Source of the DNA: a virus
Taxonomy: Duplodnaviria; Caudoviricetes
IMG/VR virus record: IMGVR_UViG_3300048587_000154
Span: 1 to 61,913 of that record
Reading direction: 5' to 3' (one strand)
Length of the DNA: 61,913 nt
Part shown: piece after piece, positions 1 through 61,913 of the stretch
Layout of the letters: each line of letters opens with the position of its first letter
How positions within the stretch are numbered: the stretch's first letter is position 1
Made by a program: the position numbers and the translations under genes
The notes under the pieces: generated by a model
Told to the model about the DNA's origin: nothing
The model's input: the letters and a program-made list of their open reading frames with translations, nothing else
Databases searched by the model: none

Positions 1-127
1 CATCAAGGTCTAGCACCTTTGCCTCAAGCGCGTTTTCGCCCATCGCCTCCTTCTTGGCGAGGATGGTGTTGTAGGTCTCGGTCAGCGTGTCGAGGAGGTC
101 TTGCTGTTCGGATGGCGTCAGCAACAT
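1..127. repeat. 127-bp terminal direct repeat, left copy (circular assembly overlap)
   Basis: Bases 1-127 (catcaaggtc...cagcaacat) are identical to 61787-61913. The repeat lies inside one continuous reading frame. Confidence 0.97.
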
Positions 128-3100
128 GATGCGCCCGGTCAAGCGCTGCATCGGGTTCTCTGTCGAGACCGCGCCCTTTTCGTTGAAGGCAACCGGCGTG
201 CCAAGGCGATCGTTCAGTTCGGCGTTGTCGCGCGCCCACTGAACGGCGGCAAGATCGCCATATTCGTTCATGAAATCGACGGCATCGGCGGTGAACGCGC
301 TCTTGCGGCTGGCTGTGGTGTTCGCCGACAAGGAGGCCATCTTCTTCATGAGGACGGCGGTTGGTCGCGCCTCTGCCGGGATATCGGCGGAAAGCTGCGT
401 ATAGGCCGGCGCAATCACCTGTCCGGTACGGTGGATGCGGCCAAGCATCTGCATGTGCGTATCAATGTTTCCGTCCGCCTGGGCGATGACCATGCGGCGG
501 CGCGAGCGATCCTTGTACTTGGATGACGCATGCAGCGAAACGCCAGTCGAGCCGGAGCGGTTGAGGATAACGACATCGAGACCGCCGTCGTTGAACTTCT
601 TGATGGTGACGCGCTTGCCCTCTGCGCCCCGCTCGGCGGAAGGCCGCGACGCCAGCGTGCCGGTCTTGTAGTCGATCATGGTCCCGCGCCCGGTGATCTC
701 GGCGACCTTGTGGCCGTCCTTGGTCAGTTCGTGGCGGATGTAGTCGATCGGGGAGGCAGGCAGGCCAGACAGGTCGGCTTCCTCGATCGCGGTTTGCGCG
801 GCCTCGTAGCCGGCCCGAAACTCGCCTGGCAAATCCGTTATCGGGATGAACACATGATCCTTTTCGTCCTCTCCATCCTTGATGGTGATGCGCAGCGTGC
901 GGTCGAGGTAGCGCTGCACCACATCGGCGAAGGTGATGTTGATCGGATCGCCGATCGATAGGCCCTTGTCCGCCGCATAGTCGGAAATGAACGACTCGTT
1001 GGTGAACGAAAGGGTGATGACCGGCTTCTCACCATCCGCCAGCGCCTGCTTGGCGCGCTCCACGGCGGCCTTGGCCTTGATGGAAAGCAACATCTGGTTG
1101 ATGATGTTGTGCATGATCGAGGCAAATTCGGTCGAGTTCGCCGCTAGTTCACCGATGCCGCTATCCATCCCCATAGCCGCGCCGTTTTCCTTAAGCCACG
1201 CCTCGATCCATTCCTTGCGGAAATCCTTGATGGATCGGTCGAAGTCGAAGATTGTCCGAATGGAGTTGGCGAAGTCGGCATAGGCTTCGTAATTGACCTC
1301 TGCAACGTCTAGGTCGTACTCGACACCCTCGAATGAACGCTCGCGCCTGGCGTACTGTCCAGCATCAGCCAGCATCGACGCCACCACCTGTTGCAGCGGC
1401 ACCTTGCCCTTGGTGATGAGTTCGGGGAGGTCTTTCGGATCATTGACCGCCTTGGCCATGTCGGTACGGCTGTACAGGTCCATGACGGTCGGGTTTTTGG
1501 CGTAGGTGGCAGAGGAATACATGACCGCCTTGGCGACTGAAATCCACTGCCGGAACTTCTGCGCACGCGGAACCGGGGCACCCTTGGCGGCGCGCTGCTT
1601 TTCGCCCTGACCGCCCGCATTGTGCGACTCGTCCATGATGAGGAAGGCGCGCGGGGCGATCTGGTTCATGAAGCGACGGCGCGAGGTCTCCAACCCCTTC
1701 ACCGTGTTCATCTGGTCGTAAGTGGTGAAGATCACATCCGGCTTGATCTTGCCAGACAGGATCGCCAGCATTTGTGCGTCCGCGTCCTTCGGCGATTGGG
1801 ACTTGGTGAATTGGCCGCGCTTCTTGGGGGCTTTAACGCCGTCTACCTTGGCCTGATCGCGCTCGATGAGCCAATCGACCGCCTCATCGTCCAGCGGAAC
1901 GGTGGTGTTTGAGTTGGTCATGAAGATGTACGGATCGCGACCAAGCGCCTTCGGCCACTGGATATCATTCAGGTCGCGGTACATGTCGCCGTAGAGGTCG
2001 GGCTTCTCCGTGACGAATACCGGCACCATGCCGCGCTTGTGGGCGAAGCGAATGGCAGCCGCGACGACACGGCCCTTACCGATGCCGGTCTGGTCTCCGA
2101 TGATGAAGGCGTCGCCCTTGGCAACGTTGTCGATCGCCAGCGCGATTGCGTCTATCTGCTCGGCGCTGAACACGTCCTCAAGCTCGGACGTGTCGTAGCC
2201 AAGGCTCTGCGCAACGAAGGCGTCGATGTCGCCGTGGGTCTGCTCGATCTTCGCCAGCGAAGCATCCATCGCCGCGCCAAGGGCGGCGGGAACAAGCGTG
2301 TTGAGCGACTGGCCTTCGCGCGAATAGGGCCGGTACGGCACTTGCCCGGTCGCGTTGGCCTCGCTGGTTACTCTAGCGTCTCGCGGCTTGGCATCAACGC
2401 GCTCACCAGTTCCTCCGGTGTCGTCGCGCCCTGCCAGGCCGCTTCGTCCCTGATCGCCATCCACCAATCCGTCAGGGCTTCGTTGTCCCCGATCATCTGG
2501 AAGGCTGCTTGGCGCGGGCTGGCGTCCGCCGACGGGCGCTGCATCAACAGGCCCTCGGCTTCCATCCTGTCCGCTGCGTCCGCTATCTCCTGCGGGGCGT
2601 TCTTCGACTGCTCCAACAGGGTTCTGAATTTCGCCTCGACCTTCGATAGAAACCGGCTCTCCTCGGTCTGCGGCACTTTCTGAACTACGGCTGCCATCGA
2701 GATATCCTTTCAGCGATGCCCATGAATTAATGTAGGCAGGAACGCGGGCTGCGGGAAGGGGTAGGCTTGATTTGCCCTTTCCGTCGATCACGATCACGTC
2801 AACCGGCCATGCCGCGCCTTGGCGCTGGTACATCTGACCGGACACGGTGAAGTGCTCGATCACGTTGTAGCTGTCGTAGAGGCGCTTGTAGAACTTGCGC
2901 TTTTGCGAGGTGTTGTAGTTGTCGCTGCGCTCGGCCTCTGTGCCATCCTTGACGCTGCCAACGATGAATACGGCTCGACCGTCTGGCGTCATGCCTTCCA
3001 GCGCCTTGAGCACGATCGCCTGATCTATCGCGGTGGTGCGGTGCTGGCCGACCTCGAACACGATCGACTCGCCATTCTTGCGCACGGCACCAAAAGGCGG

Positions 3101-6100
3101 GTTGCCAACGATGCGGTCGGCTCCGTGCGGGGTCTCCATGTCCAGCGCGTCGTTGTCGGTCACGCGGAAGCCCTGATTGCGCAAGGCTGCGGAGCGATCC
3201 TTGTTCAGTTCGTTGGCGTGAACCTGTTGGGTTTCGGGATCGGTGTCGATCAAGAGCGCGCCGTTGCCGGCTGTCGGCTCGTAGATGATCTTACCGCCTG
3301 CGACGTTCGCCAGGCGATCGACCACGTAGGCGAGCGGCATCGGCGTCGAATAGGCCTGCTCTGCGACGCTCTGCGATGTGCGGGTGGCAAGGCGCGGCTG
3401 GCGCTCGTAGAGGCTCACCAAGCGATCGTAGACCACTTCGCTACCGCGCTTCTTGCCGGCCTTGATGATGTCACGGGCAGCCAGCACAACGGCCTGCTCT
3501 ATGACCTCCTCGGCCTCCTTGTTGGCAATCTCCTCCTGCTTGGCCTTCCAGCCGTGATCCGCCAGCCACCTACGGGCCTGATTGATGGTCTCGAAGCGCG
3601 TATCAGGCGAAAGCAGATGGTCGCGAAGTTCTTCGACCACGGAAGCGGGCGTGTTAATTTTTTCGACCTCTTTTGCGGGCGTATTTTTTACCGGCTCGAC
3701 TGGCTTGGCCTCATCCGCGACCAGATAATCCTTGCTGCGGCCTTCCTTGTTGATCTGGATGCCGCCGCCCGGCACAAAGCCAACCGCTTCGGTCACACGC
3801 ACGTTGTTTTCCGTGTAGGACCGAACGCCCTTGTCATCCTCCCACACGGTGTTGCCGCGCGCATTGACGCCGATCTTGGTCCAGCGCCCGCTTTTCGTTG
3901 CCGGCGTCTCTGCCTTCGGCTCCGGTCTGGCCTTCTCGGCTGCGGCCTCGAAGGCGGCATCGGTGTATTCGTGCCCGCCCAACTCCGGCGTCTTTTCCTT
4001 GCCCAAATCGGCATGCAAGCGCGCCGCCTCCTTGGGCGATGTCATGCCGGTCGCATCGAGGCCGGGATAGTTGCGCGCGCCCTCCCAAAAACTCAACAGG
4101 TAGGGATGAATGGCCTTGCCGAAGTCGGCGGTCATAGCCTTGGCGAAATCGGCAAAACTTTTGACGCCAGACTCGATGTAAGCGCCGGCGATGGTCATGC
4201 CATCGACCAGCATTTCCGGGTCGATGCCGCTGTTGAGTTGCGACAGTTTCGAGCGAAGTCGGGCGCGGGCGGCTTCAACCTTGTCGGTGGTGAATATCTT
4301 GTTGCCGGCGAAACGATCGGTTGGCTTCTCCGTGGACTTGGCCTTCACCTGATTGTGCAGGTCCATGAGGTCGGTCTGCCTGGCATCGTCGCCGAACAGC
4401 CCGCCAACGTCCTTTTGCGGCTTGGCGGCCTTGAGCGGGGCATCGGCCTTGCGCTGGGCCATGGTAGCGTCGGAGGCGCGCTCTGCGCCGGGAATGACCG
4501 TCTGCGGCTTACCGTCGGCTCCGGCCTCGGTTTCCGGCTTACGGGCACGCAGCTTCAACAGCGCCAGGCGGGCAGTGCGCTTGTCGAAGGCCATGCCGTC
4601 AACAACGACGCCATCCTTGGAAGTCTGAATGCGGCGCTCGATGGTGGCGATCGCCGCATCGGCATTGCCGTTTTCACCAGCGAGCATGCGCTCGGCCATG
4701 ATTTCGGCCTCGGCGTTGTCGGCGCGCGGGGCTGGCTCGCTGCGGAGCGCGGCTAGTTCTTCGTCGGAGGCGAACGTGTCGCGTGCGCCGCCTTCTGTGC
4801 CCGTTCGAGCGCTTCCGCCGTCTGTTTCTTGGCCTGCACCTTGCGGCCCGCTCTCGCGGCCATCCGGTGCTTGTGCGCGGAAGTCTTGGCGATCTGCTTG
4901 CGCTTCGGATCGGTCGCTGCCTTGGCTTCCTGCTCGCGCTGCCGCGCCGTCCGCAAGTGCTGCTCCGGGGTGTACTTCATCGGACCCTACCTCATCGAAG
5001 AATGGAATAACCGGCGTTGCCTCGGCTTCGGGCTGCGGGTTGTCTGCGTCATAGCCCATCGCATCACGTTCAAGCGCATCGTCCACGCTCATCCCCCCAG
5101 TCATCAGGTCGATGACTTCTGCCATGCCAGCGGCATCGGGATCAATGCCCAATTCACGCAATTCAGCCATCGCGCGTTCGCGGGCGTTGACATGCTGACG
5201 TTCATCGGTGGCGCGGCTCTGATCTTCCCGCCAAGCCTGCGCCCAATCGTCGTCGTTGCGAGAGAACTGGTCGCGGCTGCCAATGTCGGTCGCAAGCGAT
5301 ACCAGCATGTCATCAATGGTCGAGGTGGAAAGCTCGCCATCCTCCGAGTCCTGCAAATAGCCGTTCTCGACCAGAAGCGCGCGGGCCTGATCGAGCGATC
5401 GGCCATTGGCGCGCACCAACTTGCCTACGCCTGGCACAAACACCTTGTCAGCGTCCATGTTGGCAAGCTCGCCCTTGTGATCGCGAACACCACCGCTGGC
5501 CGCAAGAAACTCGACCATCGACTGCGGGCGCTTCACACGGCCCTGTGCGTCTGCCGGCCAGCCTTCTTGCGTGGTTTTGACCTTGCCCATCGCATAGGGC
5601 GTGCGATGCGCCTTTGGCGTGGCGATCCAGTCGCGGAAGGCCTTCGGGGAAACCGACGTGATCGCGCCCACACGCTGGTTTCCCGATCCATCGGAGAACG
5701 CCTTGACGTACAGGTCGCGGGCCTGCGCGATGCTGTCTGCGCCAAGAATGACCTTATGCTCATCGAAGCGCCCGTTTTGCGTCGGCGCACGCTGGTCAAC
5801 GATGTAGATTTTCTTCGATTTCGGGTTGTCGCCCACGTACACATCGACGTGATCGCCGTCCGCGCCCGTGGTTTTCTTGATATACCCGTAATGCGCCGGA
5901 AGGACGGACTCCCATGCCGGCCCGTCGGGGTTCTTGTTGCGGCGCGTCGATCCCTTTGGGTTCTCGATCGTGATGTCTTGCCCGGCGATGCGAACATGCG
6001 CCTTCTTGTAGTTCCCAGCCTGCGCCTGTGCGTCCGACGGCTCGGCAACGCGCTGTCCAGCCGCTTCGAGGTCTTGCGAGGTCTCGATCGATGCCGGGCG

Positions 6101-7696
6101 CGCACGCGATGCGTCGGTCTCAAGCCCGCGTGCAGATGAGAGCGCGGCAGGCTGGGCTTCTTCCGGCTGCTGAATGACGGTCGGAGCCTCAAGGGCGGGT
6201 TCCTGCGCAACAGGCTGGGCTTCCGGTGCAACGGGTGCCGGTTCTTGTGCAACACCGTACTGCGCGGCGATGGCAATCTCGTCTGGCGTGGCTGGGTCGA
6301 TCGCCTGGCTCACCTCTGCGGCGGCTTCTTCCGGTGACATCGAGTCGATATCGGCGTCGGTCCACAGCATCTTGCGAAGCGTGGCACGGACTTCCGGGGG
6401 GACGCTGGTCGAGGGTGTGGCCGGAGGTGGCATGGAAGGCGCAATGGGCACTGCCGCCTCCTGCTCCACCTCCGGCGCGGCGGGAGCGGCGGCTTCTGGC
6501 GATCCGCGCTCAACCGCATCCGGCTCGGTCGAGGTCTCCAATGGCGCTCGCGCGTAACGCTCGGCAGGGTGCGTCACCACCTGCTGATTGTTAGCGTCCG
6601 CCGCACCGCCCTCGCCCTTGCCGAATATCGCGCGTCCGGTCTTGGACACGACTTGCTCGCCCACCTTCAAGCCACCGCCGACGATGCCGCCGATTGCAGC
6701 CGACTCGGCCACGCCATCCATGATGTCTTGATCGGGCTTGTAGACGTAGCGCGCAATGAGGTTCTGCGCCGCCTGCTGAACGGCTTCCTGACCGCCTTCG
6801 GCTGCCGCCTGTGCAAGCACCTTCCCGACGGCTCCGGCCAACTTGCCGGCGAACGGCAGCGGCACGCGCTCGAACAGCGTTTCGATCGGGATTTGCTCTG
6901 TGAGACCGGGATATCGGCCCAACCTGGCCGCTTGGATGATCTGCTCTTGCGTCGCGCCCTTGGAGATAGCGTCATCGATCTGCTGACCGCCCGTCGCCAG
7001 TGAGCCGCCGACAACGCCGGCAACCGGGCCAAGGCCGGGCACCGCGCCAGCCGCCATGAATGGAACGGTCGAGCCAAGCCCTTCCGAGATCGACCGCGAC
7101 CAAGTGTTCTCATAGTCCTCGGCTGCCGGGAAGTTCTCGGCGGCATAGTCCTGCATCGCCTGCCCTGCTTTGAACAGGGATGTGTCCTGAATTTTCTCCT
7201 CCGGCATGATGTCGGCGTTTTCGCCGAGTCCTGCCAGCGCCTTCACGCCACCATCGACCGTGAGCGTTCCGTTTCGCACCTGCGAAGCGACGGCCAGAAG
7301 AACGATTTCCTTCAAGCCGCGAATGCCCTTGTTGGCCTTGCGCTGCCAGTCCACCCATTCCGTGTTCGTCATGAGCGGGATGCGCTCGAAGTCGGTTACC
7401 AAGCTCTTGACGGCTTCGCGCTCTGCCGGCGAATTGGCCTGTTCCGGGGCAAGACCCTTGACCATGGAGCCGATGGCGTTGATCGCTCCGGCTGCGATGC
7501 CCTTGCCAACTTCGGGGAAGAACGATCCGCCTTCCTCCTCGGCGATCGGCTGGGCCGGCTTTACGCTCGGCGCGGCGTATTTCGCCCATGGGCCTGCGGC
7601 CTTTGCGCCGGGCGTCGGCGACGGGCTGGGCGTAACTGCATCGACCGTAGGGGCTGCATACTTCTCCCACGGGCCACGGATCGCGTTTTCAGCCAT
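1..7696 (-). CDS. Giant DarB-like polyvalent protein, N-terminal part (continues across the junction to 56316; 4,388 aa total): InPase domain, N6-adenine methyltransferase, strawberry-notch/SF2 helicase
   Basis: Translated by hand from ATG 7696 (MAENAIRGPWEKY, abutting the upstream TAA) with no stop to the junction. InPase motifs AGNYKK..IENPKGS..HYGYI..DGDHVDVY..FDEHKV (~5590-6040). MTase motifs QAYSTP, YEPTAGNG, NPPF (~2760-3360). Helicase motifs GDQTGIGKGR, DESH, SAT, QMLGRIHRTGQ (~420-2100). Absent from the ORF track because it runs off the window edge. Confidence 0.93.
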   Translation of the reverse strand, partial: MAENAIRGPWEKYAAPTVDAVTPSPSPTPGAKAAGPWAKYAAPSVKPAQPIAEEEGGSFFPEVGKGIAAGAINAIGSMVKGLAPEQANSPAEREAVKSLVTDFERIPLMTNTEWVDWQRKANKGIRGLKEIVLLAVASQVRNGTLTVDGGVKALAGLGENADIMPEEKIQDTSLFKAGQAMQDYAAENFPAAEDYENTWSRSISEGLGSTVPFMAAGAVPGLGPVAGVVGGSLATGGQQIDDAISKGATQEQIIQAARLGRYPGLTEQIPIETLFERVPLPFAGKLAGAVGKVLAQAAAEGGQEAVQQAAQNLIARYVYKPDQDIMDGVAESAAIGGIVGGGLKVGEQVVSKTGRAIFGKGEGGAADANNQQVVTHPAERYARAPLETSTEPDAVERGSPEAAAPAAPEVEQEAAVPIAPSMPPPATPSTSVPPEVRATLRKMLWTDADIDSMSPEEAAAEVSQAIDPATPDEIAIAAQYGVAQEPAPVAPEAQPVAQEPALEAPTVIQQPEEAQPAALSSARGLETDASRARPASIETSQDLEAAGQRVAEPSDAQAQAGNYKKAHVRIAGQDITIENPKGSTRRNKNPDGPAWESVLPAHYGYIKKTTGADGDHVDVYVGDNPKSKKIYIVDQRAPTQNGRFDEHKVILGADSIAQARDLYVKAFSDGSGNQRVGAITSVSPKAFRDWIATPKAHRTPYAMGKVKTTQEGWPADAQGRVKRPQSMVEFLAASGGVRDHKGELANMDADKVFVPGVGKLVRANGRSLDQARALLVENGYLQDSEDGELSTSTIDDMLVSLATDIGSRDQFSRNDDDWAQAWREDQSRATDERQHVNARERAMAELRELGIDPDAAGMAEVIDLMTGGMSVDDALERDAMGYDADNPQPEAEATPVIPFFDEVGSDEVHPGAALADGAAARAGSQGSDRSEAQADRQDFRAQAPDGRESGPQGAGQETDGGSARTGTEGGARDTFASDEELAALRSEPAPRADNAEAEIMAERMLAGENGNADAAIATIERRIQTSKDGVVVDGMAFDKRTARLALLKLRARKPETEAGADGKPQTVIPGAERASDATMAQRKADAPLKAAKPQKDVGGLFGDDARQTDLMDLHNQVKAKSTEKPTDRFAGNKIFTTDKVEAARARLRSKLSQLNSGIDPEMLVDGMTIAGAYIESGVKSFADFAKAMTADFGKAIHPYLLSFWEGARNYPGLDATGMTSPKEAARLHADLGKEKTPELGGHEYTDAAFEAAAEKARPEPKAETPATKSGRWTKIGVNARGNTVWEDDKGVRSYTENNVRVTEAVGFVPGGGIQINKEGRSKDYLVADEAKPVEPVKNTPAKEVEKINTPASVVEELRDHLLSPDTRFETINQARRWLADHGWKAKQEEIANKEAEEVIEQAVVLAARDIIKAGKKRGSEVVYDRLVSLYERQPRLATRTSQSVAEQAYSTPMPLAYVVDRLANVAGGKIIYEPTAGNGALLIDTDPETQQVHANELNKDRSAALRNQGFRVTDNDALDMETPHGADRIVGNPPFGAVRKNGESIVFEVGQHRTTAIDQAIVLKALEGMTPDGRAVFIVGSVKDGTEAERSDNYNTSQKRKFYKRLYDSYNVIEHFTVSGQMYQRQGAAWPVDVIVIDGKGKSSLPLPAARVPAYINSWASLKGYLDGSRSSESAADRGEPVSIEGRGEIQNPVGAVEERPAGDSGRSGQDGSRGPVDAAPVGGRQPAPSSLPDDRGQRSPDGLVDGDQGRSGLAGRDDTGGTGERVDAKPRDARVTSEANATGQVPYRPYSREGQSLNTLVPAALGAAMDASLAKIEQTHGDIDAFVAQSLGYDTSELEDVFSAEQIDAIALAIDNVAKGDAFIIGDQTGIGKGRVVAAAIRFAHKRGMVPVFVTEKPDLYGDMYRDLNDIQWPKALGRDPYIFMTNSNTTVPLDDEAVDWLIERDQAKVDGVKAPKKRGQFTKSQSPKDADAQMLAILSGKIKPDVIFTTYDQMNTVKGLETSRRRFMNQIAPRAFLIMDESHNAGGQGEKQRAAKGAPVPRAQKFRQWISVAKAVMYSSATYAKNPTVMDLYSRTDMAKAVNDPKDLPELITKGKVPLQQVVASMLADAGQYARRERSFEGVEYDLDVAEVNYEAYADFANSIRTIFDFDRSIKDFRKEWIEAWLKENGAAMGMDSGIGELAANSTEFASIMHNIINQMLLSIKAKAAVERAKQALADGEKPVITLSFTNESFISDYAADKGLSIGDPINITFADVVQRYLDRTLRITIKDGEDEKDHVFIPITDLPGEFRAGYEAAQTAIEEADLSGLPASPIDYIRHELTKDGHKVAEITGRGTMIDYKTGTLASRPSAERGAEGKRVTIKKFNDGGLDVVILNRSGSTGVSLHASSKYKDRSRRRMVIAQADGNIDTHMQMLGRIHRTGQVIAPAYTQLSADIPAEARPTAVLMKKMASLSANTTASRKSAFTADAVDFMNEYGDLAAVQWARDNAELNDRLGTPVAFNEKGAVSTENPMQRLTGRIMLLTPSEQQDLLDTLTETYNTILAKKEAMGENALEAKVLDLD
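2368..2697 (-). CDS. 109-aa protein overprinted in an alternative frame inside the giant gene
   Basis: AAAGGA Shine-Dalgarno 7 nt before the ATG, G/C-ending codons and globular-looking sequence. The host frame here is a low-complexity linker between MTase and helicase. Confidence 0.7.
   Translation of the reverse strand: MAAVVQKVPQTEESRFLSKVEAKFRTLLEQSKNAPQEIADAADRMEAEGLLMQRPSADASPRQAAFQMIGDNEALTDWWMAIRDEAAWQGATTPEELVSALMPSRETLE
4753..4980 (-). CDS. 75-aa basic helical protein overprinted inside the giant gene
   Basis: GAGGT SD 8 nt before the ATG and strongly G/C-ending codons. The host frame is open but linker-like. Confidence 0.6.
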   Translation of the reverse strand: MKYTPEQHLRTARQREQEAKAATDPKRKQIAKTSAHKHRMAARAGRKVQAKKQTAEALERAQKAAHATRSPPTKN

Positions 7697-56022: not shown

Positions 56023-56322
56023 ATGTTGAAATTTGCCGCCGCATTCTATGCGTTGTTCGTTTGTAGTGCGACCGCCTGCGATATCTTTACTGGGGAAGGC
56101 TCCGAGTTCGTCCCCGGAGCAACGCTTACATGGCATCCCGACGGGATATTCACACTCGCCGACTCGGATGGGTCGAAGGACTATGTTTTCCAGTCCACGG
56201 GAATGACTGATGTTCCCTACTCCATGGGCGTCTCGACCAAGGATAAAAACGATGTCGTCTTGATCCGCGAGCTTGATGGCAAGTGGATCATCGACATGGT
56301 GGTTTTCACCTGCGCTCATTGA
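56023..56322 (+). CDS. Secreted or lipoprotein-like 99-aa protein, inverted in the late operon
   Basis: GGAGGA RBS; signal peptide ending SATAC. Confidence 0.65.
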   Translation: MLKFAAAFYALFVCSATACDIFTGEGSEFVPGATLTWHPDGIFTLADSDGSKDYVFQSTGMTDVPYSMGVSTKDKNDVVLIRELDGKWIIDMVVFTCAH

Positions 56323-59300
56323 CGGCTGGCCTTGACGTAGGCCTTGCGCGCCTCGCGCATGGCGTCCAACTCGGCCTTTTCCAGTTCATCAAGCCGCTTC
56401 TTCTTCTGCGCCGCCGCCATGCTGTCGTCAGCTTCGAGTCGGCGGCGCTCTTTGTTCAGTGCCTTGCGCTGCTTTTCTGCCGCCTTGAACGCACCTGCCG
56501 CCTCAAGCTCTGCCGTGTGCGACTTCCGATAGGCATCTGCCTTTGCCGTCTGGCCGCTCTCGTTGTAGGTTTTCAGATACCCCTCTGACGCCATGACGGC
56601 CTCGCGCTCGCGGTAGTATTCGGTGCGCTGCGAATTTTCATCAATCTCGCCATAGAAGTTGCGCACCCACGGCGTCTTGCCCGGCTCAAACTCGCCCACA
56701 AGCGCGTTTTCCGCCGTCTGCTCGACACCAGTAACGAAGCGGCCAAGCCCGCCGACGAAGTATCCCCACAGATGCTCCAACGTGTCGGGGTGGATATCGA
56801 CCGCGCCTGGCACCACCTCATCACCGCCGCTTGTCCAGTTGATGAGTTCGGCCAACTTCCTGAATGCCGGGTGCGTGGTCGAGAACGCTTGCGAGCTTTC
56901 CGGCGCTGGCGATCGATCGAACGGATTGCTGTCCGGGTAGATCGGTGATCCCGCGAAGTTCTCGTTGCTGATGATATCAACAGCGGGATCGCCAATAGTC
57001 GGCGTCACCATGGAAGCCATGGAGCCGGAGCCGATCGGGTTGAAGGCGTCGAAAGCAACGCGGATCGCTGACAAGATGCCCGTCATCGGGTCTTGCGCGC
57101 CCGAAGCGATGGCCGCGCCCTGCAAGCCCAAGTGATGGAAGGCGTTGTAGCCATAGGCCATCGGGAACGAAACGTATTTCTCGGTGCCGGGGATGAAGAA
57201 CACATACTGGCGTTCGAGCTTGTAAGGCTCGTTTTTCAGCATCTTCTCATAGTACGACTCGCCGTCGTCATCCGTGCCGGAAAACAGCATGTTCCAAACG
57301 TGCTGCATCATCCCGCCAAATATGAACGTGGCGATCGCCGCGCGCACCGCCTTTGAGCGCACCGCCCTCGATCCGACGTTGTAAGCGCCCTGCGCAGCCG
57401 CGTTGAAGAACACGAACCATGCGTTCATCGCCGGGCCAAGCTCGCCATGCTTCTTGAAGTCCACGGTCAGGTCGCGCGCCATGAACGCGGCTTCCTTGGC
57501 CGTGCGGCCCTGAATGTTGCGGGCTGCCGCATAAGAGGCCAGGCGGATGCCGTTTTCGCCAGCATCGTTCAAATCGCCAACGAATTTGGTGACGGCGCGG
57601 TACGCCGCTTTCATGGGCGTGACGCCGTTGACGGCCTCGGTCATCTGCTTTTGCAGCTTGTGCAGGTTTTCTTCCAGCGTGGCGTAACCGTGGAACGTGA
57701 TCTTGCCGCCTGCCTCGACATACTCTGCGGCCATCTTGTCCCAAACACCGTCGCCAGCCTTCTTGCGCGACAAACGCCACAATGCGCCCATCGCCTGCGG
57801 GATGTTCTTCGTGATGGTGGCGATCTGCTTGACCGAAAAGCCTTCGTCCAGCAGGTGCGTTGTGCCTGTCTGAATGTCCCTGATGATGTTGATCGGGGTG
57901 AAGGCCGGGTTGGCGCGGGTGTTGACGATCGACTGCCACACGGTAAGCGGGCGCACGATCTTGGAGAGTGTTCCCAGTTCGGCCATACCCATCTTGCGCA
58001 GCGCGAGGCCGATCTTCGGATCGCGGAAGCGGATATAGAACGTCCGTCCGCCCACCTTCGCGGCCAACACGTCATCAAGGTTCGAGAACGGGTTGGGCAC
58101 GCGGCGATAGGTGACAAGACCATCCTTGCCGATCACGCGCTTGAACACGTCCGGGGCTTTGGTGATGTCGCCAAGGAACTTGTCATCGCCCGACCAGTAG
58201 ACTTGCGCGATATGCTCGCCTTCCGGGTCGAACTCGTTGATGAAGCGCGCCATGGCCTTGCCGACGGCGTTCTTGTGCTGGCGCAAGATCGATTGCTCGT
58301 TTTGCGTGATCGCATGCGCAAGGATGTTCTCGGCCTCGGAAAAGCGGCCCATGGCAACCTTGAACTCATCACCGCGCACATCGAAGCCGCCAGCGCCGTG
58401 ATTGTGCCAGAAGCCGTCCGATGTCATGCCCTCCATGCCCTTGAGGGGCACGTAGTTCTTCCACTGCGTCGTCAATAGGTCGAAGGTCTCGGCGCTGATG
58501 AGACCGGCCTTGCGCTGGTTCTTCAATTCGGCATCGATCATTTCCCTGATGGAGCCGGCAGCGATGCGCAAGGCGCGGTGCTTTTCCGGGTCGCTGCGGG
58601 CGTCCGCGATGATTTCGCGCACCTGATCGATTGACATGCCGGAAGCGCCGACAACCGACGAGTCGAAGATCGCCCGGTAGAACTGGCTTTCCTGCGGGTG
58701 GCGCATGCCGACGACGCGGTTCCGCTCCTCGGCGTGCAGGGCGTAGAGGTACTTGTGCAAATCCTCCAAGCTCGCGCCACCATCCGCCAGCGCTTTCACT
58801 GCCGGCGCGACATAGGTGTCGTGCATGCGCTCGATCTGCGGCAGCGCCCGATCTTCCATCAGGCGGGCGTTCAGATAGGCGTCGTTCAACTCGGACAGCT
58901 TGTAGCCGCCGCGCTCCTGCATCATGCGCAGCGGGTGAAGATAGTCGATCCACTTGCGGGTCAGGTAATCGCCAAAGCTCTCGCCGTCATCCTTGTGACT
59001 GCGATCCTTGGTCGTTGATATGCCCTTGAGCGTGGCCGTAGTGTTGCGAAGCATTTTGGCAATGCGCTGGCCCACCAATGCGCCAGGCGCTTTGCTCGGC
59101 TCGATCTTCGGCGGCACAAACTCGGCCTTGTCTGGCATCTGCATTTCTGCGGTGATGGAAATACGGTTATCGTCATAGATGACGTAATTGTACGTGCCCT
59201 TGCCGTCTGAACGCGATCCCCGATCGAGATAACGATGGCCGGGGATGCCAGCCGCACGCAAAGCTTCGGATGCGGCGCGATCGTTTGGAACAGTCTCACG

Positions 59301-61913
59301 CGGATTAACCCTTGCCATCAACGATCCGGCAGGAGGGGGGGAGCCAAGATCAACGGTCAAATACTTGTAGAGGCTGGAGAAGGAAACATCCCCCAGCGAT
59401 CCAGACGAAAGCAAATTCGACACGTTGGTTCCGAGTGATTTCAATTTCTCCACAAGGGCGGGTGGCTGCTCGGACATTTTCTTGTCCCAGTCCAGCAATT
59501 CATGATCTTCGGGGAGGTTGACGGTATAGAGCTTGCCGAAGGTCTTGACCTCTCCCTTGCTCCACTCGCGCAACAGCGCTGCGGCGGCACGCAACGTCTT
59601 GAAGTCTCCCCAGCCGGCTTCCTTCTGGAATGATGTCAATTCGCCCGGCGAAAGCTCTGCCGACCTCGCTTGGTTTTCCACCCAGCGCGCCTTGTCGGTC
59701 AGGCTCATCCCGCTATCAAGCGCCTGACGGGCGAAGATCGCGGCTCGTTCCTCGGCATTGGTGTTGGCGATGTCTTTACTGCCAACAGCAATTCGTTTGC
59801 CGTTTACCTCTATCGAAGCATGGCGCGATGCCAGCGTGTCGCGGTAATACTCTGCGACATCGCGCCGGCCAGCGAAGTAGAGACCCCAGCCGAACGACTG
59901 GTTGCCCTCACCTGTACCGATCTTGTCGGTCGAGAAACGGCCAACCTTGTGCGGCGTGCCGTGGTAAGCCGGCTGATAATCGAAATCGCTGTCACGGATC
60001 GGGTTCACAGGCCGGGTTTTCATTTCGCCGCTGCGCGCCTTGTCGAAGATATCTTCGGCGGTGCGGTAGCCGTGACCGGCAAGCAGGTTCTTGGCGCGGC
60101 GGATCGCTGCCCTGATCTTGTCCCACACCCTGCGAAGCCCGATGTGCAGGCCGCGAACTTCGCGATTGTCATCCATGCGGGTCGAGTAGATGGCGAACGC
60201 CTCGGCCTCCAATTCCTTTTGGCTCATCTTTTCCGGGCGGCGGAACGGGTTCGAGGCGACCAACTCGCGCAGGCGGGCGTTCTCGCGCTGCAACAGGAAG
60301 CGCTCGTCCTTGGTCAAGAACAGCGATTGCAGCCGGTGGAAGGCCTCATGATAGGCGGTGCTGTCGTTGAACGTGTCCAGCGCCAGCGCAATGATGTCAA
60401 TCGCCGGATCGTAATAGCCCGCCGCGTTCCTTGGTCCGTCATCCAGATGCGCGCCCCACGCCTTAAGCGCCGGATGATCTGCCGGGATGGGGATCACGTC
60501 ATGCAATTGCGTCTTGATGCCAGCCACACGGGAGACGATTTCAAGCGCCTTGTGAACCTCGGCTTGCGTCCTGACGATTGGCTCCGGCCCGCGATCCGAA
60601 ACGACGGTGCCGTTCGGCTCCTGCCGGATCGACATTTGCCGGGTGTCCTTCTTCGGAAAGACGATCGACTGGGCAAGCTCGGCCTCACCCGGAGCGACCC
60701 AGCGCACGCCAGCGGTTTGCAGGGCTGCGAGGAGCTTCTTGGCGGTGTCGGCGTTGACCGTCGCCTCCATCTGCCCAAAGCGCTCTGTCCATAGGTCGTA
60801 GACCTTGCGCACGGCGTCGTCTGTGACCAGCTTCTTCGCCTTACGGGAAACGCTAAATTCGAAGCCCCTGTAGGTGTTCTCGACTCTCACCGTATCCTTG
60901 TCGTTGACAAGCGTCTTTTCCTCCGACTCGGCAAGGAAGCGCATGGCCTGATCGGCGTTCTGGAAGCGAATGCGCCGCTCGCGCTGCCAATCTCCCAAGT
61001 CGAACACGCGCGGCATGAGAATGCCGGGCTTGATGTTGCCCTGCTTGTCGGTGAACTGGATGATCTGGCCCTTGCCGTTCAGCCCGTCGAAGGCTGCCAA
61101 CAGATTGCCCGTGGCGATGAAACGCTCGGAACGGCCCTCGGTCGCGGCTTTGGTGAACATAGGCTCCAAGGCTTCGAGCTTGTCGTTCCATCCAGCGCCG
61201 CGAAACTGGGTGATGGCTCCGGCGTCCTCGCCTTCCTTCGGCTTTTCGAACGTGATCTGCGAGAATGGCAGAATGATCGTGCGCGAGGAGTCGGGGATCG
61301 CGATTTCAACCGACCATGAGGAGAGCGCCGTCGGGGATTTGGCCTTCTTGCTGGCGCGGATATCCAGCACGATTGCCGGCATTTCCGTATCCCCCACCAA
61401 GATCACCTGCTTGCCGATCGACATCGACCGGATGATGTTCGACCACTTCTGCAACTGCTCACGCGCCTTTGTCTGCGCGTTTTCCTTCGCCTTCGGGTCT
61501 TTGAGGCTGTCCACGGTCCACTTCGCCCAAGCCTCATGCTCGGTGCGCATGCGCTCGATGGTGCGTTCGGCCTTGATTGCGCCGATCCGCTCCAACTGGC
61601 GAAGCGCCTGCGGGAAGTTCCATGTGTCGGGGCGATGACCAAGCGAGTCGGCAACGCGATCCACCACATCACGCGGCTTCATGGCGAGGCCGACGGACTT
61701 GACCGACATACGCTCCATGTTGGCCGAAGCCTCGAACGGCGACGGGCCGAGCGACGGCTTGATTTCGGTCGATCCCAAGCTTTCGGCATCAAGGTCTAGC
61801 ACCTTTGCCTCAAGCGCGTTTTCGCCCATCGCCTCCTTCTTGGCGAGGATGGTGTTGTAGGTCTCGGTCAGCGTGTCGAGGAGGTCTTGCTGTTCGGATG
61901 GCGTCAGCAACAT
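56316..61913 (-). CDS. Giant polyvalent protein, C-terminal part: HExxH metallopeptidase, ART-like domain, LPD38-like domain
   Basis: YHEAFH (~60336-60353); YHGT..F....IGTGEG.Q..GWGLYF (~59870-59966); NP.F...N..RD, DF...G, FFNA..QG near the end. In frame with 1-7696 through the terminal overlap. Confidence 0.92.
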   Translation of the reverse strand: MLLTPSEQQDLLDTLTETYNTILAKKEAMGENALEAKVLDLDAESLGSTEIKPSLGPSPFEASANMERMSVKSVGLAMKPRDVVDRVADSLGHRPDTWNFPQALRQLERIGAIKAERTIERMRTEHEAWAKWTVDSLKDPKAKENAQTKAREQLQKWSNIIRSMSIGKQVILVGDTEMPAIVLDIRASKKAKSPTALSSWSVEIAIPDSSRTIILPFSQITFEKPKEGEDAGAITQFRGAGWNDKLEALEPMFTKAATEGRSERFIATGNLLAAFDGLNGKGQIIQFTDKQGNIKPGILMPRVFDLGDWQRERRIRFQNADQAMRFLAESEEKTLVNDKDTVRVENTYRGFEFSVSRKAKKLVTDDAVRKVYDLWTERFGQMEATVNADTAKKLLAALQTAGVRWVAPGEAELAQSIVFPKKDTRQMSIRQEPNGTVVSDRGPEPIVRTQAEVHKALEIVSRVAGIKTQLHDVIPIPADHPALKAWGAHLDDGPRNAAGYYDPAIDIIALALDTFNDSTAYHEAFHRLQSLFLTKDERFLLQRENARLRELVASNPFRRPEKMSQKELEAEAFAIYSTRMDDNREVRGLHIGLRRVWDKIRAAIRRAKNLLAGHGYRTAEDIFDKARSGEMKTRPVNPIRDSDFDYQPAYHGTPHKVGRFSTDKIGTGEGNQSFGWGLYFAGRRDVAEYYRDTLASRHASIEVNGKRIAVGSKDIANTNAEERAAIFARQALDSGMSLTDKARWVENQARSAELSPGELTSFQKEAGWGDFKTLRAAAALLREWSKGEVKTFGKLYTVNLPEDHELLDWDKKMSEQPPALVEKLKSLGTNVSNLLSSGSLGDVSFSSLYKYLTVDLGSPPPAGSLMARVNPRETVPNDRAASEALRAAGIPGHRYLDRGSRSDGKGTYNYVIYDDNRISITAEMQMPDKAEFVPPKIEPSKAPGALVGQRIAKMLRNTTATLKGISTTKDRSHKDDGESFGDYLTRKWIDYLHPLRMMQERGGYKLSELNDAYLNARLMEDRALPQIERMHDTYVAPAVKALADGGASLEDLHKYLYALHAEERNRVVGMRHPQESQFYRAIFDSSVVGASGMSIDQVREIIADARSDPEKHRALRIAAGSIREMIDAELKNQRKAGLISAETFDLLTTQWKNYVPLKGMEGMTSDGFWHNHGAGGFDVRGDEFKVAMGRFSEAENILAHAITQNEQSILRQHKNAVGKAMARFINEFDPEGEHIAQVYWSGDDKFLGDITKAPDVFKRVIGKDGLVTYRRVPNPFSNLDDVLAAKVGGRTFYIRFRDPKIGLALRKMGMAELGTLSKIVRPLTVWQSIVNTRANPAFTPINIIRDIQTGTTHLLDEGFSVKQIATITKNIPQAMGALWRLSRKKAGDGVWDKMAAEYVEAGGKITFHGYATLEENLHKLQKQMTEAVNGVTPMKAAYRAVTKFVGDLNDAGENGIRLASYAAARNIQGRTAKEAAFMARDLTVDFKKHGELGPAMNAWFVFFNAAAQGAYNVGSRAVRSKAVRAAIATFIFGGMMQHVWNMLFSGTDDDGESYYEKMLKNEPYKLERQYVFFIPGTEKYVSFPMAYGYNAFHHLGLQGAAIASGAQDPMTGILSAIRVAFDAFNPIGSGSMASMVTPTIGDPAVDIISNENFAGSPIYPDSNPFDRSPAPESSQAFSTTHPAFRKLAELINWTSGGDEVVPGAVDIHPDTLEHLWGYFVGGLGRFVTGVEQTAENALVGEFEPGKTPWVRNFYGEIDENSQRTEYYREREAVMASEGYLKTYNESGQTAKADAYRKSHTAELEAAGAFKAAEKQRKALNKERRRLEADDSMAAAQKKKRLDELEKAELDAMREARKAYVKASRQ
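61787..61913. repeat. 127-bp terminal direct repeat, right copy
   Basis: Identical to 1-127. Confidence 0.97.

Follow-up and report, generated by a model that had tools for sequence, protein, structure and literature searches.

Can the DNA that links two enzyme domains in one reading frame also encode a complete protein in another? This question is raised by positions 2368-2697 (minus strand) of a phage record (IMG/VR IMGVR_UViG_3300048587_000154), which was analysed over its full 61,913 bases and is referred to here as the window. At this position, a 109-codon open reading frame (ORF) lies within a giant gene, in its +1 frame, over the linker that separates an adenine N6-methylase from a Strawberry-notch-type helicase. 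Sequence comparisons document the ORF itself, conserved start signals, purifying selection on the nested frame, the openness of both frames and a family of related proteins. On this basis the ORF is very probably a genuine embedded protein-coding gene, and the DNA beneath it would be dual-coding. We call the encoded protein P0001. A preliminary description of this DNA, made from its letters alone, had inferred a real nested gene, a claim that codon periodicity, the ratio of nonsynonymous to synonymous substitution rates (dN/dS), the protein family, recurrence at nine of 13 loci and wobble-position bias together support well.

Two open frames in the methylase-helicase linker

The nested ORF is complete from start to stop codon within a longer ORF that is open in another frame. 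Its first base has index 4999 in the giant gene (4999 mod 3 = 1), which places it in the +1 frame, and it has a start signal of its own, an ATG preceded by a Shine-Dalgarno-like (SD) AAAGGA. We thus recover exactly what the preliminary description had reported, a same-strand, shifted-frame ORF for 109 amino acids (aa) with an AAAGGA SD, on the minus strand at 2697-2368. In the giant frame, this AAAGGA is read as the K-G of a conserved 'LKGYLD', and a nested-frame TGA (2712-2710) lies five codons 5′ of the nested ATG. The same description placed the ORF in the gap between the two enzyme domains. This is also what we find: the overlapped giant-frame residues fall between the N6_Mtase match, which ends at residue 1579, and the AAA_34 match, which starts at residue 1840, and the nested ORF fills this gap, with the conserved helicase N-terminal motif 'QVPYRPYS' starting ~10 codons past the nested stop.

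Across the nested ORF, the giant frame reads as a Gly/Arg/Asp/Ser/Glu/Pro-rich sequence (DGSRSSESAADRGEP...GRDDTGGTG) that connects methylase to helicase. It contains no stop codon, and its GC content at third codon positions (GC3) drops from about 0.75-0.8 to 0.38-0.54, consistent with the low complexity and the A/T-ending codons described for it previously. Over the same interval, GC3 in the nested frame climbs to 0.78-0.86, such that the codon periodicity changes frame. The part of the giant gene at 2..7696 contains 13 same-strand alternative-frame ORFs of at least 60 aa, four of which have at least 109 codons, and coding-type periodicity (GC content at position 3 > position 1 > position 2) is found in only two of the 13: 2368-2697 and a second candidate, 4753-4980. 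The length of the nested ORF is no argument by itself, and the case for a gene, as drawn here from sequence, is a comparative one.

The abundance of alternative-frame ORFs fits a different explanation, in which there is no gene and both the ORF and its periodicity are by-products of low-complexity linker codons (GGN, GAN, CGN, AGC and the like). Also in its favour, shuffling the giant-frame codons of the window's linker keeps the +1 frame open in 60% of trials, and an Ala/Pro/Glu-rich stretch at ~6016-6346 shifts the periodicity without a coding-like ORF. Comparison with relatives speaks against it. The only close DNA relative fetched is a 2,252-bp metagenome contig (L002), which shares the ATG, the identical AAAGGA and the stop position with the window, and in which both frames are open. 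Between the window and L002, the nested frame shows 65% aa identity and a dN/dS of 0.26 over 327 nt, compared with 51% and 1.27 for the giant frame over the same DNA, 0.84 for the third frame, and 0.06 and 0.13 for the giant-frame flanks; these are values from a single DNA pair with a synonymous divergence (dS) of 0.87, and estimates for overlapping frames are not independent. A per-frame dN/dS comparison of this kind had been proposed as a check on the nested gene, and its outcome favours one.

Recurrence of the nested ORF at other loci

We read the methylase-helicase junction in 13 loci (the window, L002 and L004-L014). At nine of them, a +1-frame ATG ORF of 109-169 codons fills the linker (Table 1), and none of these nine has a giant-frame stop across the nested ORF. 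The preliminary description had called for the same nested ORF in related giant genes, which holds for these nine but not for the other four, and a tblastn search with P0001 gave no match among phages or plasmids. At all loci with readable DNA, the nested domain directly precedes the helicase N-terminus. In the eight loci compared for start signals, an SD-like motif (AAGGA, GAGGA, AAGGAG or AGGAG) lies 6-10 nt 5′ of the ATG, and the nested stop is positioned ~10-25 codons ahead of a helicase '(V/I)PYxPxS' motif. This conservation of ATG and SD is a further point against the absence of a gene. Bacteroides phage BS-TP4 (L013), read separately from those eight, has no SD ahead of its nested ATG; Bacteroides rarely uses SD sequences. 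In this cultured phage of Bacteroides salyersiae, the 119-codon +1 ATG ORF (L013:2300-2659) lies in a giant coding sequence (CDS) of 16.2 kb and has T-poor, G-rich wobble positions. A compensating pair of sequencing errors as the origin of the frame switch was ruled out, as the arrangement recurs at independent loci.

Table 1. Features of the window and loci that carry a nested ORF in the methylase-helicase linker
Feature or locus	Position or record	Strand	Details
Nested gene (protein P0001), very probable	2368..2697	minus	ATG 2697-2695; TAA 2370-2368; 109 codons; +1 frame of giant gene
Shine-Dalgarno-like AAAGGA	2705..2710	minus	7 nt upstream of nested ATG
Giant-frame reading of nested-ORF DNA	2368..2700	minus	low-complexity tether; giant residues ~1667-1776; zero stops
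Second nested ORF (P0007)	4753..4980	minus	75 codons; ATG; +1 frame, as the first; over a low-complexity giant-frame stretch
Giant polyvalent gene, 5′ part	2..7696	minus	2,565 codons; remainder at 56316..61786, across terminal repeat
N6 adenine methylase core	2960..3355	minus	Pfam N6_Mtase; giant residues 1448-1579
Strawberry-notch-type helicase, first NTPase domain	1292..2179	minus	Pfam AAA_34; giant residues 1840-2135; 4.8e-19
Window	this phage record		nested ORF 109 aa
L002	metagenome contig		nested ORF 109 aa
L004	IMG/VR phage contig, 52% GC		nested ORF 137 aa
L013	Bacteroides phage BS-TP4		nested ORF 119 aa
L005	Gloeobacter morelensis plasmid		nested ORF 150 aa
L006	Picosynechococcus PCC 7117 plasmid		nested ORF 168 aa; L006:3776-4282
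L007	Acaryochloris marina S15 plasmid		nested ORF 169 aa
L008	Chroococcidiopsis CCNUC1 plasmid		nested ORF 146 aa
L009	Thalassospira lucentensis plasmid		nested ORF 128 aa

The Picosynechococcus and Acaryochloris plasmids (L006 and L007) provide a second pair for comparison. Their nested frames are 41% identical (E from 2e-44 to ~1e-43), versus 25% (E = 0.047) for the giant frame over the same DNA; the flanks are 71-78% identical. Based on one or two DNA pairs (window/L002; L006/L007), the nested frame thus appears to be under purifying selection, and conservation of the nested protein in both pairs is not what linker codons without a gene would give.

We also asked how readily each frame would be open given the other. 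When the giant-frame codons are shuffled, the +1 frame is rarely left open (P = 0.012 in L004, 0.0012 in L005, 0.0002 in L006, 0 in L007, 0.0004 in L008 and 0.0028 in L013), and the giant frame is likewise rarely left open when the nested codons are shuffled (P = 0.037 in L005, 0.0006 in L006, 0.0014 in L007, 0.0036 in L008, 0.011 in L009 and 0.0058 in L013). Because shuffles so rarely leave them open, both frames are held open by selection where this test has power, and openness is non-random at loci with lower GC content or a longer ORF. The extent to which the +1 frame of the lower-GC loci exceeds chance (P ≤ 0.012 in L004-L008 and L013) again argues for a gene. If the window's nested protein is re-encoded with the codon usage of the giant gene, ~3.1 giant-frame stops are expected, and the probability that the frame stays open is 0.028.

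The nucleotide content of the nested ORFs carries a corresponding signature. Their third positions are the first positions of giant-frame codons, and at these positions T makes up 2-14%, versus 11-31% in host genes (depletion p = 5e-16 to 0.07), and G makes up 37-64%, versus 22-36% (enrichment p ≤ 3e-4 in 10 of 10 nested ORFs). The nested wobble position would be T-poor because every stop codon begins with T in the giant frame, which has to stay open, and G-rich because G gives giant-frame codons for Gly, Ala, Asp, Glu or Val, residues that are small or charged. The signature is also present in L004, whose own GC3 is merely 0.54. The high nested GC3 that had been ascribed to the genome's G/C-ending codon bias is therefore present as described, but it is better read as a G-rich, T-poor signature of dual coding, seen also in relatives that are not GC-rich.

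Existing annotations bear on a second alternative, in which translation of the giant ORF does not yield a single chain: an upstream protein, a small protein and a separate helicase would be made, and the open giant frame would be a tolerated accident. RefSeq lists the Gloeobacter nested copy separately, as the 150-aa hypothetical protein WP_230844304.1 (L005:3788-4237, plasmid pGMOR1), and begins the helicase CDS at an overlapping ATGA, from L005:4234; the pGMOR1 annotation table read here lists no CDS for the methylase part. Gene callers likewise picked out the nested ORF on several short contigs, the upstream protein truly ends at the domain's stop in one type of relative (P0008 and P0009, see below), and in high-GC DNA the giant frame could be open by chance (P = 0.18-0.34). 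Despite the RefSeq split, however, a 1,638-codon frame in pGMOR1 is open through methylase, linker and helicase, and in the annotation tables of the Picosynechococcus, Acaryochloris, Chroococcidiopsis and BS-TP4 records, the giant CDS alone covers the nested position. With zero giant-frame stops at nine loci, ribosomes cannot terminate there, and in L005-L009 and L013 the giant frame is unlikely to be open by chance (P = 0.0006-0.037). T is depleted at nested third positions, and in-frame methylase-helicase fusions are widespread, with 47 plasmid records holding a single match that spans at least 80% of the junction query. We consider separate translation of three proteins very improbable.

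Relatives of P0001 and a second nested ORF

P0001 belongs to a family whose members are found in several arrangements. Four free-standing homologues (107-109 aa, 55-72% identical) are present in the protein collection, and a profile search of 1.84 billion representative proteins returned 33 matches at E ≤ 1e-3, 15 of them at E ≤ 1e-10. Many family members are free-standing proteins of ~100 aa; nine are longer (164-327 aa), and all nine carry the P0001 domain at the extreme C-terminus. We define this unnamed family here by a P0001-like C-terminal domain of ~100 residues followed by a stop, with the motifs F-L..VE.KF, SPRQAAF.MIGDN and TP.EL..AL.P (alignments A1, A2 and A5), all of which are found. 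P0001 is acidic, with a net charge of about -8 (counted on the translation). AlphaFold2, supplied with 34 family sequences, predicts a compact five-helix structure with a predicted local distance difference test (pLDDT) score of 81.1 (75.5-81.1 across five models). Both a 33-member family with many free-standing or in-frame members and a fold that is consistent in all five models are hard to reconcile with an ORF that is a by-product of its linker.

We compared the short form found in phages with the long forms using single-target E-values. A hidden Markov model (HMM) of the P0001 family matches the nested proteins of L008 (Chroococcidiopsis; 2.4e-9), L005 (Gloeobacter; 7.7e-6) and L004 (0.0022), and an HMM of the long form matches P0001 (E = 4.5e-5). 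These matches support homology of the phage short form to some of the long forms, with a link to others that is weak. Searches with P0001, A1 or P0014 gave no loci in the viral contig collection, and those with A1 and A3 gave none in the genome contig collection. One further candidate relative, L003, was rejected as spurious: it encodes a tape-measure-like protein and was matched through the search pattern only.

The longer relatives account for the frame offset of the domain in the window. P0008 and P0009 match the giant frame of the window (P0009 is 70% identical over 4711-4244) and then run directly into the P0001 domain, which in relatives of this type is 60% identical to the nested frame of window 2700-2371. 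Compared with them, the window has 1,543 extra bases, comprising an LPD-like segment and the methylase, and the nested domain is offset in frame because this number is 3n+1. In P0011 and P0012, an 'ERMRPY' helical domain lies ahead of the P0001 domain, and in P0049 and P0051 it lies directly ahead of the helicase. In fragments that span the junction (P0041-P0046), G/R/E/S-rich linkers carry the giant frame through without a stop. As an in-frame C-terminal domain in some lineages and an embedded out-of-frame gene in others, the P0001 domain appears to be a discrete module. The nested gene had previously been called overprinted, that is, born de novo on the giant gene. This is not established: the nested frame is the constrained one and the giant reading an apparently unconstrained passenger, and the order of origin of the two frames is not fixed, because relatives carry the same domain as an ordinary in-frame C-terminal domain.

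These in-frame relatives are also the main support for a third alternative, +1 ribosomal frameshifting, by which the P0001 domain would be made as the end of a truncated polyprotein (N-terminal modules, methylase and P0001 domain) beside the full-length protein. Such a product would resemble those of two-product frameshift genes such as phage tail chaperones. P0008-P0012, P0019 and P0023 read from upstream giant-frame modules into the domain without a change of frame, a stop follows the domain in each, and P0021 passes from the methylase through ~40 giant-frame linker codons into the nested frame. P0021 (327 aa, from a 36-kb metagenome contig) closes with the final two-thirds of the nested domain, read in frame up to a stop; it resembles a frame-shifted version of the P0043 locus, and either a genuine frameshift variant or a faulty assembly could explain it. 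In P0043, a close relative, the giant frame is open, so P0021 may carry an indel or such an assembly fault. Furthermore, the nested-frame TGA five codons before the ATG means that any shift would have to fall inside the ORF, the ATG and SD-like motif are kept in all eight loci compared, and free-standing forms of 100-109 aa with the same start position are common. No slippery motif was noticed on reading the window and L002 sequences, a reading that was not a systematic search. We judge frameshifting to be a highly unlikely source of the domain, on a par with separate translation, and favour an embedded gene with its own start.

The second ORF with coding-type periodicity, at 4753-4980, has related features. 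It lies in the same frame as the first, 2,283 nt (761 codons) 5′ of that ORF's ATG, and its third positions are 5% T and 59% G. The encoded protein, P0007, is very basic, with a net charge of about +14 (counted on the translation). It resembles the N-termini of P0012 (60% identity, E = 1e-25), P0010 (43%) and P0014 (32%), three proteins that all end in the P0001 domain; in P0014 (164 aa), P0007-like and P0001-like parts are joined directly. A free-standing 75-aa homologue of P0007, P0076, is 74% identical.

Several observations weigh against an embedded gene at 2368-2697, or against its generality. Evolution is faster in the nested protein than in the domains on either side (dN of 0.23 versus 0.015 and 0.07). 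For the window and L002, codon-order shuffles are non-significant both for the +1 frame (P = 0.60 and 0.41) and for the giant frame (P = 0.34 and 0.18), as is synonymous permutation within the ORF (P = 0.35 and 0.54). Four of the 13 loci, those of Serratia, Burkholderia and Pseudomonas plasmids and of Acinetobacter phage MD-2021a (L010-L012 and L014), have no nested ORF; their linker is of a different, shorter type. The P0001-family HMM matches L006 (0.034), L007 (0.11) and L009 (0.16) weakly, hhalign of the L004 nested protein against A2 gives E = 0.054, and the BS-TP4 nested protein has no detectable similarity to the P0001 family (E = 0.3-0.7). Such nested genes, that of BS-TP4 included, could be analogous instead of homologous. 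Among the sequencing runs that hold the nested-ORF sequence, none is on record as RNA. Finally, a related 60.8-kb contig (run X3) has single-base gaps at 2743, 2528 and 2524, which, if real and not aligner noise, would alter the frame relations there.

Even so, an ORF without a gene is already disfavoured by the conservation of the nested protein and its start signals, the family, the predicted fold and the openness of the lower-GC loci, and we hold it to be extremely improbable. In run X17, labelled RNA-Seq ('probably DNA'), contigs cover only short pieces outside the nested ORF. A near-identical contig from run X1 has at least three differences inside the nested ORF among those listed, two of them synonymous in the nested frame (giant-frame E>Q and V>I) and one a nested S>T (giant-frame I>N); this comparison is anecdotal.

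Proposed expression and role, precedents and the giant host gene

We propose that the two frames would be expressed as follows. Ribosomes that start at the giant gene's own ATG would read 2368-2697 in frame 0 as a flexible, low-complexity tether, joining the N6-methylase to the Strawberry-notch helicase in a 4,388-residue polyvalent protein of the virion module. Other ribosomes would initiate internally on the giant mRNA, at the conserved SD and ATG in the +1 frame, and yield a separate 109-residue acidic protein, predicted to have five helices, that would end ~10 codons before the helicase N-terminal motif. Selection would act on the amino acid sequence of the nested protein, and in the giant frame mainly on its staying open and hydrophilic. 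No sigma-70-like promoter was found in window 2200-5300. The ~90 nt located 5′ of the nested ATG (window about 2700-2790, minus strand) are almost identical to L002 and unusually rich in A/T-ending giant-frame codons (giant-frame GC3 0.36-0.44); its nucleotides may be under constraint as an unstructured site for ribosome loading.

Since the upstream polypeptide to which the P0001 domain is joined varies among relatives, the helicase, or the methylase-helicase dyad, is its most likely partner. The assignment of P0001 as an accessory, docking or regulatory partner of the helicase, or of the helicase/methylase module, is tentative, and we stop short of calling it probable. A complex prediction for the helicase N-terminal 555 residues with P0001 gave a score of 0.27, with a mark of 0.32, which counts neither for nor against such a partnership. 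The protein may instead be a chaperone or inhibitor, roles raised in the preliminary description, or an anti-defence factor. Weighing against any functional assignment, scans of the P0001 family gave no Pfam or NCBIfam match at E ≤ 0.1 and no PHROG or PADLOC match at E ≤ 1; fold searches (the first model against PDB and BFVD, the second against PDB) gave no match at E ≤ 1e-3, the best having E of ~2; and an ESM Atlas search with P0001 gave no usable match.

A broader scenario, which we regard as speculative and rather unlikely in its entirety, would make P0001 an ancient small partner of the Strawberry-notch helicase in phages and plasmids, toggling between an in-frame C-terminal domain and an embedded out-of-frame gene. 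An ancestral P0014-like protein, with a basic N-terminal helix and an acidic C-terminal domain, would have been split here into 4753-4980 and 2368-2697, ~2 kb apart, with both parts still made. They would serve as a regulatory or assembly subunit of an injected antirestriction enzyme, for example as a gate on the enzyme or on its packaging.

Embedded genes as such are familiar from the spanin genes of phage lambda, Rz and Rz1. Rz1 is wholly embedded in Rz in the +1 frame, and a single mRNA is the presumed source of both proteins; elsewhere among phages, the pair can be separate, overlapped or embedded. Like Rz1, the candidate gene described here would be small, complete and equipped with start signals of its own, and would lie in the +1 frame of a larger gene on the same strand. 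There is no relation to Rz/Rz1 in either sequence or function. The larger frame here encodes a tether between domains of a giant enzyme instead of a structured portion of a partner protein, and P0001 is not a lipoprotein but a predicted soluble acidic helical domain, known here from its sequence. Overprinted or overlapping genes of small viruses such as phiX174 are the subject of PMC8227390 and 10.1101/2020.06.10.143693. Such genes occur in very compact genomes. As in those overlaps, one frame appears structured and the other biased or disordered, and the two frames constrain codon choice. In contrast to them, space is not limiting in a 62-kb phage or in plasmids of 100-300 kb, and the nested frame looks older or more constrained instead of novel. 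To our knowledge, long embedded genes on the strand of their host gene that are well supported by comparison are a rarity except in very small viruses.

The host enzymes have been described before. The archetype of the polyvalent proteins with a methylase-helicase dyad is the P1 antirestriction protein DarB (Iyer et al. 2017, PMC5512222), and the main text of that paper defines the dyad as an adenine N6-methylase with NPP(Y/F) and a SWI2/SNF2-type ATPase fused C-terminally. The words 'overlapping', 'frameshift', 'linker' and 'low-complexity' do not occur in this main text, which describes no embedded gene; the paper's supplementary domain files might list an in-frame form of the P0001 domain under an LPD name. 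According to the abstract of PMC6606913, PEp14/Parlo-type podophages combine a podovirus-type genome with a giant DarB-like protein of several thousand residues. The window's giant protein is likened to it by that description, in size and in its DarB-like methylase-helicase content, and the abstract makes no mention of a nested gene. Literature searches turned up no report of a gene embedded in one of the Strawberry-notch or DarB type. Embedded genes are known in principle; what appears to be new is this family, its site within an inter-domain tether of a giant enzyme, and its switching between embedded and in-frame forms.

Annotation pipelines suppress embedded genes: six of the nine loci with a nested ORF come from annotated public records, of which four list the giant CDS only and one, that of Gloeobacter, gives the nested ORF as a hypothetical protein. 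The combination seen here, a periodicity switch, G-rich and T-poor wobble positions, a conserved SD with ATG, and two frames that are open over 109-169 codons even at 45% GC, is a signature that can be checked elsewhere, and 'disordered low-complexity linkers' of giant proteins can be the shadow of another gene. The host enzymes form a widespread class on mobile elements and are thought to shield incoming DNA from restriction, and the nested gene points to a component of phage and plasmid methylase-helicase systems that has gone unrecognised. Culturable carriers exist in the Picosynechococcus and Acaryochloris plasmids and in Bacteroides phage BS-TP4.

The record itself is a complete virus record. 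Its ends share a 127-bp repeat (1-127 and 61787-61913), by which the 61,913 bases close into a circle. Once closed, the giant gene spans the junction (7696->1, then 61786->56316, minus strand) and has 13,167 nt and 4,388 codons, about one fifth of the phage genome. Pfam places an InPase domain at giant residues 555-691 and Helicase_C_4, the second domain of the Strawberry-notch helicase, at residues 2329-2554 (1.3e-24). The N6_Mtase match is marginal (19.4 bits, just below the curated cut-off of 20.4), and an NPPFG motif can be read in the translation. Genes near the giant gene match PHROGs for portal, major head protein, tail fibre, virion structural proteins and a 'DNA ejection protein'. The giant gene thus has the order of a dyad, N6_Mtase (marginal) with NPPFG followed by AAA_34 and Helicase_C_4, and many domains in a single 4,388-aa chain within a phage virion-gene neighbourhood. 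From this domain content and these neighbours, we take it to be a phage polyvalent protein with a methylase-helicase dyad, in the sense of the main text of PMC5512222.

Two other parts of the giant gene stand out. At ~6016-6346 (minus strand), the Ala/Pro/Glu-rich stretch of the giant protein likewise distorts periodicity, and a third nested gene was considered there; the overlapping 247-codon ORF (5533-6276) starts with TTG and has a non-coding GC pattern, and we attribute the distortion to composition. Just downstream of the second nested ORF, window 4528-4771 is replaced by shorter in-frame sequence in two related long contigs, from runs X1 and X3, with net changes of -195 and -189 nt, respectively, marking this segment as a variable hotspot of insertion and deletion.

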